Virus record (IMG/VR): IMGVR_UViG_2711768001_000010 | Length of the DNA: 4,404 bases | Direction: 5' to 3' (one strand) | DNA from: a virus | Lineage: Duplodnaviria > Heunggongvirae > Uroviricota > Caudoviricetes | The notes under the pieces: generated by a model | The model's database searches: none | Told to the model about the DNA's origin: nothing | The model's input: the letters and a program-made list of their open reading frames with translations, nothing else | Part shown: positions 1 to 4,404 of the stretch, one piece after another | How the letters are laid out: each line of letters begins with the position of its first letter | Numbering within the stretch: position 1 is the first letter of the stretch | Made by a program: the position numbers and the translations under genes

Positions 1-160
1 GCTTTGAACTCTTTAGAGTAACGTTGGGTTTTTCTGCTCATTATTAGCTCCTTCTGATGCCATTCTATTTCAGGAAGGAGTGTCCGTTAAACTCAGGCTA
101 CCTCAGGTTATTCGCTTCTGGGCATGGGCGGATCAACAAATGATAGACGGTAATGCAGAT

Positions 161-181: not shown

Positions 182-369
182 AAAAGTGCAATAGATCGCA
201 TCACTTTTATGTCTGGTTTTGCTGATGCGTTAATTCAGGTTGGATGGCTGGTCGAAAATGACGGAGGGCTTTCTCTACCTAACTTTGAACGTCATAACGG
301 AAAAAGCTCTAAAAAAAACGGGCGGTTACAAACGAGCGAGTAACAAAAATACGCGAACTGAAACGAAAA

Positions 370-390
370 GGTAACGCTGCCAGCGTTACA
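370..390. repeat. 19-bp palindrome GTAACGCTG-c-CAGCGTTAC (371-389) in the initiator linker region
   Basis: Perfect 9-bp inverted arms around a single central base. Additional GTAACG / GCGTTAC half-sites occur at 18-23, 324-330, 339-345 and 406-412. A 9-bp direct repeat AAACGAGCG occurs at 330-338 and 462-470. Confidence 0.6.
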
Positions 391-414
391 CAAACGGATC
401 AAAAAGCGTTACCA

Positions 415-432
415 GAGGAAGAGGAAGAGGAA
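415..432 (+). repeat. (GAGGAA)x3 hexanucleotide tandem repeat encoding an acidic EEEEEE stretch
   Basis: gaggaagaggaagaggaa read directly; in frame 1 it encodes EEEEEE (followed by D) in the initiator linker. Confidence 0.7.
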
Positions 433-788
433 GATCTAAATACTGATCTCCCCCTCGCCAAAAACGAGCGTCTAAAAAATTCGAGCCGGAGGCTATTGAG
501 CTGCCCGATTGGTTGCCGGAAACACTCTGGCATGAGTGGGTCCGGTTCAGACAGGCATTGCGAAAACCGATTCGAACGGAGCAGGGCGCTAACGGGGCGA
601 TACGGGAACTGGAAAAATTCCGTCAGCAGGGTTTTACACCTGAGCAGGTGATTCGACACAGCATCGCCAATGAATACCAGGGCCTGTTCGCGCCGAAAGG
701 TGTTCGGCCTGAGACGTTGCTCCGACAGGTTAACACCGTCTCGTTGCCGGACAGTGCGATCCCGCCAGGCTTCAGGGGGTAACGGACC

Positions 789-1529
789 ATGAAAAATATT
801 GCGACAGGCGGCGTTCTGGAACGCATCCGCCGACTGACCCCGCCACATGTAACCGCCCCATTCAGAACGGTAGCGGAGTGGCGCGAGTGGCAACTTGCTG
901 AAGGCCAGAAACGTAGCGAGGAGATCAACCGCCTGAATCGCCAGTTGCGGGTGGAAAAAATTCTGAATCGCTCAGGCATCCAGCCGTTGCACCGTAAATG
1001 CTCGTTTGCGAATTACCAGGTGCAGAACGACGGCCAGCGATACGCGTTAAGCCAGGCGAAATCCATCGCCGATGAACTGATGACCGGGTGTACAAATTTT
1101 GCGTTCAGCGGAAAACCTGGTACCGGGAAGAATCACTTAGCGGCAGCTATCGGGAATCGCCTGCTGAAAGACGGTCAGACAGTGATTGTGGTTACCGTGG
1201 CTGATGTTATGAGCGCCCTGCNNNNNNNNNNNNNNNNNNNNNNNNNNNNNNNNNNNNNNNNNNNNNNNNNNNNNNNNNNNNNNNNNNNNNNNNNNNNNNN
1301 NNNNNNNNNNNNNNNNNNNNNNNNNNNNNNNNNNNNNNNNNNNNNNNNNNNNNNNNNNNNNNNNNNNNNNNNNNNNNNNNNNNNNNNNNNNNNNNNNNNN
1401 NNNNNNNNNNNNNNNNNNNNNNNNNNNNNNNNNNNNNNNNNNNNNNNNNNNNNNNNNNNNNNNNNNNNNNNNNNNNNNNNNNNNNNNNNNNNNNNNNNNN
1501 NNNNNNNNNNNNNNNNNNNNNNNNNNNAG
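789..1529 (+). CDS. DnaC-family AAA+ helicase loader (prophage paralog); C-terminal half hidden in N-run 1222-1527, 3' end inferred
   Basis: The N-terminal 144 aa are readable and contain Walker A FSGKPGTGKNHLAAAIGNRLL, KCSFANYQV and IVVTVADVMSAL, closely matching recalled E. coli DnaC (FSGKPGTGKNHLAAAI, IITVADIMSA). ATG at 789 is 6 nt after the upstream TAA stop, with a G-rich SD-like AGGGGG at 772-777. The ORF track reads through the Ns to 1583, which is an artifact. At the in-frame position 1527-1529 the sequence is N-a-g, consistent with a TAG stop giving about 246 codons, and the next gene has its own AGGAGG RBS at 1534-1539. Confidence 0.85.
1222..1527. other. N-run (306 nt) of masked or unsequenced bases inside the DnaC-like gene
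   Basis: Read directly. The length is a multiple of 3, consistent with an uninterrupted frame, but the content is unknowable. Confidence 1.
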
Positions 1530-3365: not shown

Positions 3366-3454
3366 NNNNNNNNNNNNNNNNNNNNNNNNNNNNNNNNNNN
3401 NNNNNNNNNNNNNNNNNNNNNNNNNNNNNNNNNNNNNNNNNNNNNNNNNNNNNN
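3366..3454. other. N-run (89 nt) inside the promoter/terminator-bounded noncoding unit
   Basis: Read directly. Confidence 1.
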
Positions 3455-3976: not shown

Positions 3977-4330
3977 ATGGCACATATACAACTGGTCAAA
4001 CAAACCTCTTCCGGATTACTTCTCCCGGCGACGCCGGAGAGTTGCGATTTTCTGCATCAAATCAAAATAGGTGAGTGGATACACGCAGACTTTAAGCGTG
4101 TGTGTAACTACGCATTCCACAAGCGTTTTTTCAAACTCCTGCAACTGGGTTTCGATTACTGGACTCCGGTCGGTGGGGCGATCACGCCTCGCGAACGAAA
4201 ACTGGTGTCCGGTTTCGTTGATTACCTGTGTGAATCAGTAGGCCGGGAACATACGCCAGCTCTGAGCGAAGCCGCAGAGCAATTGAGGTGTACTGGCAAT
4301 AGCGGACACTACCATTTGTTCTTTTTTTAA
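3977..4330 (+). CDS. Hypothetical protein; may be truncated at a T7 tract (4322-4328)
   Basis: ATG at 3977 is preceded by GGAGAAAG (3964-3971). The ORF track start at TTG 3935 is less likely. The ORF ends HLFFF-TAA right after the T7 run, while frame 1 is open from 4303 to the window end. Family not recognised with confidence. Confidence 0.5.
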   Translation: MAHIQLVKQTSSGLLLPATPESCDFLHQIKIGEWIHADFKRVCNYAFHKRFFKLLQLGFDYWTPVGGAITPRERKLVSGFVDYLCESVGREHTPALSEAAEQLRCTGNSGHYHLFFF

Positions 4331-4404
4331 GCAGCCATCTGATGATATTTTTCCCTGAAGGCTGCCGGGGAGATATTCCCCAGACGAGAGTGACGACGCT
4401 GACG

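Follow-up and report, generated by a model that had tools for sequence, protein, structure and literature searches.

The Rac replication module and gene decay in Shigella

The closest described counterpart of the locus considered here is the ydaU–ydaV module of Rac, with which it shares the gene order cI-like, cro, ydaT, initiator, ydaV and DUF977, as well as 93.5% nucleotide identity to the ydaU–ydaV record of 'Escherichia phage Rac'; one orthologue of its initiator is also named 'phage replication initiator YdaU family protein' by PGAP. It departs from Rac in that the N-terminal ~135 aa of the initiator are unrelated to the DUF1376 domain of YdaU, and in that the gene is here a pseudogene. 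A second point of comparison is E. coli DnaT, which the encoded protein resembles in its C-terminal domain, including the terminal NTVS-PDS-IPPGFRG motif; the kinship is limited to that domain, and the first two thirds of the protein hit families of phage replication initiation. A search of the literature found no papers on ydaU and ydaV in connection with replication, and nothing on the function of ydaU.

With regard to gene decay, IS600 is among five insertion sequence (IS) types that have expanded in Shigella, and IS insertion causes 50% of S. sonnei pseudogenes, with a further 12% carrying an IS plus other mutations (Hawkey et al., 2020; PMC7373316). The gene described here, with its IS600 and two indels in S. 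sonnei, is one more instance of this class, differing from it in being a prophage gene instead of a metabolic one and otherwise in nothing of substance. It lies in a 4,404-nucleotide stretch of viral DNA (IMG/VR record IMGVR_UViG_2711768001_000010; hereafter 'the window'), which is the S. sonnei segment between two IS600 copies and holds the replication module of a Rac-like remnant. We are highly confident that the gene is an initiator pseudogene, disrupted three times, fixed in the S. sonnei lineage and part of an IS-scrambled Rac-like remnant. As such it is ordinary, and public annotations and the literature on Shigella already imply it.

Three lesions in one initiator gene

The pseudogene occupies the ydaU position at 106–782 on the plus strand, where the 3′ portion of the gene from codon 36 onward is recognized by orthologue alignment, by in-silico repair and by its match to PHROG 2509. 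Three-frame translation of 1–790 reproduces the path described in the initial annotation of this DNA: the initiator-like reading occupies frame 2 as far as the stop at 341–343, continues in frame 1 (~319–449) and ends in frame 3 (~450–782). That annotation had explained the two transitions as −1 events at A-runs and proposed alignment to intact homologues as a check. Such an alignment, with the single-ORF orthologues of E. coli FDAARGOS_944 (262 aa) and FDAARGOS_943 (260 aa) as references, instead located a gain of two bases in the A-run, a loss of 10 bp between direct repeats and an IS junction further upstream, the last being a third lesion that had been overlooked.

The IS junction accounts for the 5′ end of the window. 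Positions 1–105 (minus strand) are the terminal 105 nt of an IS600 (IS3 family) ending in ...CCTCA at 105; they do not differ from the corresponding end of IS600 in S. sonnei assembly L005, and the reverse complement of 1–41 encodes the OrfA N-terminus MSRKTQRYSKEFKA. The full element measures 1264 bp and has the TG...CA ends (TGAGG...CCTCA), orfA/orfB and 3-bp target duplication (GGT) by which IS600 is identified; it is 99.8% identical to the PGAP 'IS3-like element IS600 family transposase' and matches NCBIfam transpos_IS3 at 1e-99. By megablast, 1–109 matches a multicopy element on E. coli chromosomes and plasmids, and homology to the gene starts only at 105/106. The right-hand copy of the GGT duplication occupies 106–108 (plus strand); in L005 the flanks read ...GGGAAGGT|IS600|GGTTATTCGC, as against GGGAAGGTTATTCGC in the intact gene. 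The insertion point thus falls after nt 108 of the gene, and since the GGT duplication flanks it, the event is best read as a simple transposition into codon 36. The first 108 nt (36 codons) lie directly to the left of IS600 in S. sonnei chromosomes, 1.26 kb upstream and so outside the window. Because 1–105 is the IS600 end, the GTG at 80, formerly taken as the start of the gene, sits inside the IS and the window holds no native start.

The first frame transition had been placed at the A-run at 311–318 (plus strand), and the alignment agrees with that position. The event differs from the one proposed: the intact orthologues have A6 and the window A8, a change of +2 that is arithmetically equal to one missing base yet a different event, and which shifts the frame into the stop at 341–343. 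The run is A8 in all eight S. sonnei assemblies that we fetched and A6 in the four further genomes in which it was inspected (L001, L002 and L017 of E. coli; L016 of S. flexneri). A rare allele described below has A9. As this A9 allele exists, the direction of change in the run is ambiguous, and A8 may have arisen through loss of one base from A9 (A6 to A9 to A8) as an alternative to a change from A6 to A8. The longer run also creates an in-frame heptamer, A_AAA_AAC, at 313–319.

The second transition lies at 449–455 (plus strand), where a lone TCCCCCT marks the scar of a 10-bp deletion (TCCCCCTAAA). Intact genes read GATCTCCCCCTAAATCCCCCTCGCC and the window GATCTCCCCCTCGCC; in the intact layout, GATC-TCCCCCTAAA-TCCCCCT-CGCC, the 10 bp are bounded by two 7-bp direct repeats TCCCCCT, one unit of which has been lost, with the second frameshift as the result. 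This deletion is likewise found in 8/8 S. sonnei assemblies. The preferred earlier location for the shift, the A6 run at 474–479 (plus strand), is not a lesion: its columns are invariant in the orthologue alignment, the run has the same length as in intact genes, and it is A6 in each of the eight assemblies. The neighbouring C5, offered as an alternative, was the right place but for the wrong event, being the site of the 10-bp deletion rather than of a −1.

Undoing the three lesions (deleting the IS and one GGT, removing two A's and restoring the 10 bp) yields a 789-nt ORF whose 262-aa product matches E. coli WP_038340159.1 at every residue (100% identity), the two genes differing by one synonymous nucleotide (GGT to GGA). 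The locus is in this sense a small, clean case of genome decay in Shigella: three structural mutations disable the gene, and beside them stands a single synonymous substitution. Restoring one A in both of the runs named earlier does give a continuous ORF, of 234 aa, as had been claimed, but the true protein has 262 aa rather than about 235; the ORF repaired in that way starts within the IS and misreads LNPPRQKRASKK as LAKNERLKK.

Along its whole length the repaired protein hits PHROG 2509, 'replication initiation protein' (E 1.2e-89, residues 1–262 against profile positions 1–277 of 277), a function that stands at the level of annotation. Residues 170–262 match the DnaT C-terminal domain (PDB 2RU8, E 9.5e-5; 9ZBT, 3.2e-4), so that the earlier label 'DnaT-like initiator' holds for this domain, whereas the protein as a whole is a PHROG 2509 match. 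A full-length match to the NCBIfam DnaT equivalog NF002770 failed, at 16.2 bits against a cut-off of 201; Pfam returned no family for the intact 262-aa protein even at E ≤10, and DUF1376 (PF07120), which the 285-aa Rac-type YdaU hits at 2.7e-26, is absent from it. With a 285-aa DUF1376-type Rac YdaU the intact protein shares 81% identity across the C-terminal 124 aa and no relationship in the N-terminal part. Judged by these matches, the intact protein is a putative domain-swapped lambdoid initiator, joining a non-DUF1376 N-terminal domain to a DnaT-like C-terminal one; the part exchanged, its N-terminal ~135 aa, is the presumed origin-recognition module.

We infer the mutational mechanisms (transposition, slippage and repeat deletion) from the form of the three lesions. 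IS600 would have entered codon 36 by simple transposition with a 3-bp GGT duplication, replication slippage in the A-run would have put A8 in place of A6, and slipped-strand deletion would have removed 10 bp between the two 7-bp direct repeats. Three independent mutations would thus have killed the gene. A full-length initiator cannot be obtained in any reading of the locus, and the prophage would therefore be unable to start its own replication through this protein; initiator function is presumably lost, and the S. sonnei Rac-like remnant would be without a working initiator.

Spread of the lesions and competing explanations

An exact-sequence look-up of the 87-aa ORF at 80–343 placed it on 492 public contigs, and on 73 more under a different start call; they bear the name S. 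sonnei and include chromosomes of up to 4.86 Mb. This ORF requires both the IS junction and the A8-induced stop. Most of the contigs that carry it are 2–5 kb long, which fits a 4.4-kb short-read piece with IS600 at each end. In the eight S. sonnei assemblies, whose independence is taken from their differing accessions and projects, A8 and the 10-bp deletion occur together, with the second run at A6, and the three unmasked segments of the window are 100% identical to two of these assemblies (L005 and L006).

The E. coli copies are different. Against 5,426 complete E. coli genomes, megablast aligned 105–1220 at 97–99% identity to the initiator–ydaV pair of Rac-like prophages, and among the ~664 genomes that cover 270–530 (at least 80% coverage) neither indel occurs in any; the best full-length identity over this interval is 95.6%, which is exactly the two gaps. 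The E. coli copies that were inspected are single ORFs. The exact A8 pattern had no match among species-representative genomes, which do not include S. sonnei, and a scan of these representatives with variable run length recovered copies with A6 and no other length, from an S. flexneri and an 'E. coli' genome. A genuine multi-gene arrangement was also considered and rejected.

These distributions bear directly on what the broken frames mean. Homopolymer miscalls in a draft could in principle break an intact gene, and the initial annotation had listed homopolymer undercalls among its three options; the first shift does fall in an A-run, and the window is short and draft-like, with runs of N. 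Yet A8 and the 10-bp deletion are the same in all eight assemblies, multi-Mb chromosomes among them, the A8-dependent ORF recurs on the 492 and 73 contigs, the second event is a 10-bp deletion involving no homopolymer change, and IS600 with its target duplication splits the gene as well. Since the same lesions recur across assemblies and one of them is not homopolymeric, sequencing error is excluded as their source, and we regard an artefact of sequencing or assembly as highly improbable. Equal run lengths on resequencing had been named beforehand as the finding that would leave a true pseudogene, and the independent assemblies in effect supply it. Still less credence can be given to programmed recoding, another of the three options, by which the A-run would give rise to a functional initiator through −1 ribosomal frameshifting or through slippage in transcription. 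As in dnaX and in the orfAB genes of the IS3 family, IS600 included, where −1 frameshifting is programmed, an A AAA AAC heptamer stands here in the 0 frame; a −1 slip on it would enter the correct downstream frame, and the run is polymorphic (A6, A8, A9). The heptamer nevertheless looks fortuitous: the orthologues, unbroken ORFs with A6, do not share it, conservation of the split ends at one clonal lineage, and after a slip at A8 translation would reach the −10 lesion and stop at 649–651, in a product that lacks its first 36 codons owing to IS600. With two further lesions in the gene no functional product is possible, and since not one of the ~664 copies in E. coli is split, recoding or split genes as a conserved arrangement are excluded. 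There remains the third option, genuine inactivation in a decaying prophage, which is the one that these data support.

A different question is whether part of the locus has outlived the initiator. An 89-aa ORF at 513–782 (plus strand; annotated as hypothetical protein FORC11_0720) starts at a TTG, contains the whole region that matches the DnaT C-terminal domain and appears in the ORF list as an undamaged frame; the adjoining ydaV is also undamaged, and both could in principle be expressed, a point that speaks against the pseudogene reading. One might accordingly suppose a partial domestication, in which the initiator is dead and the 89-aa ORF and ydaV are kept for a host function, and the identity of 480–800 to the E. 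coli orthologue could be read in its favour. We think this very unlikely. The TTG at 513 is preceded by CCCGATTGGTTG, in which nothing resembles a Shine–Dalgarno sequence, and the 11-bp deletion of S. flexneri described below breaks exactly this domain. Moreover, the pseudogene is young, with one substitution in 789 nt, and 513–782 is identical to E. coli for that reason, so its intactness is no signal of selection. We therefore return to the triply disrupted pseudogene, and suggest that a single pseudogene, interrupted by IS600 and frameshifted, be annotated at the locus in place of two or three separate 'hypothetical proteins' (FORC11_0720 and FORC11_0721 among them).

Some minor features of the same region may be listed here. 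A 164-aa antisense ORF (399–893, minus strand) overlaps the pseudogene and the start of ydaV and shows no sign of being a gene. Rfam had no match in the window, and a promoter and terminator scan of 1–900 gave nothing above shuffle expectation.

Parallel damage, palindromes and prophage surroundings

The same gene has been damaged elsewhere. A rare allele, found on three contigs (L013–L015) and with its protein labelled S. sonnei in the collection, has an in-frame A9, which adds one Lys, and keeps the ancestral GGT, with codon 36 free of any IS; it carries instead an IS600-like end (one mismatch) inserted after ~nt 408, in the opposite orientation. In two of these contigs (L014 and L015) two SNPs separate the upstream 1.4–1.6 kb from that of the main S. 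sonnei allele. In S. flexneri SFBU1023 (L016) and in 'E. coli' ECMA0423 (L017, 4.44 Mb) an 11-bp deletion between GGGCG repeats has removed gene nt 591–601 and frameshifts the DnaT-like domain, while A6 and the 10 bp are intact. This deletion is a parallel, independent inactivation in another Shigella lineage, and the initiator gene has thus been inactivated by at least three different routes.

The central part of the gene also contains repeated sequence motifs. Perfect 19-bp palindromes, GTAACGC-N5-GCGTTAC, lie at 162–180 and 371–389, where 0.10 would be expected by chance in the window, and a further copy is found in E. coli L001 at 3366–3384, just upstream of the intact start codon. Seven of the 14 GTTAC/GTAAC pentamers of the window fall within 150–420, an enrichment that was tested post hoc. 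The DUF1376-type ydaU has no such sites in the corresponding part of the gene. By analogy with lambda O, whose origin lies inside its own gene, the palindromes may be iterons or operators of the initiator. One could go further and suppose that the gene centre, with the three palindromes and with half-sites by the A-run and a nearby hexamer repeat, is the phage origin or operator, and that its repeated destruction (IS600 and two indels in S. sonnei, the IS600-like insertion at ~nt 408 and the 11-bp deletion in S. flexneri) reflects selection against residual replication initiation and not neutral decay; we consider this unlikely.

The hexamer, AGAGGA, forms a tandem repeat encoding a Glu run at 414–434 (plus strand; 3.5 copies by TRF), and its variation is in-frame and not a lesion. 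It is present in three copies in the window and in L005, L006 and L010, in six in four other S. sonnei assemblies and in seven in one, and in two to three in E. coli and S. flexneri. The copy number of the hexamer and the length of the A-run may serve as candidate strain or typing markers.

Downstream of the initiator are a DnaC/IstB-like gene (starting at 789), DUF977, a zinc-ribbon ORF, queH and a truncated DUF1367 gene. The first of these is ydaV, a helicase-loader gene at 789–1529 (plus strand; Pfam IstB_IS21, PGAP name ydaV); its interior is N-masked in the window and it looks undamaged, the 248-aa ORF being intact in L005. The N runs misstate length: 306 N (1222–1527) stand for 312 nt of ydaV, and 89 N (3366–3454) stand for 285 nt, including the hok toxin gene region, in identical S. 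sonnei assemblies.

The window ends in the first 121 nt of a second IS600 (4284–4404, plus strand), identical to the IS600 start and in the same orientation as the first, which truncates the DUF1367 gene, with a product of 117 aa as against 199 aa elsewhere. In L005 its flanks are AAT and GTT and there is no target duplication, which points to a rearrangement junction and to a probable IS-mediated deletion or inversion. On its far side lies an integrase fragment adjoining modABC (the mod operon). The rest of the S. sonnei remnant is similarly disturbed, with several IS elements, lysis, terminase and portal genes upstream in inverted orientation, and a ydaT shortened to 101 aa from 140 aa. In assembly L010 (GCA_001248565.1), a 55-kb contig carries the same IS600 and the broken initiator directly 3′ of a complete Rac-type module, comprising recET, kilR, sieB, the DUF1376 ydaU and a shortened ydaV, and the genes downstream differ as well. 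Either IS600-mediated recombination occurred between two prophages, or the contig was joined through the repeat during assembly.
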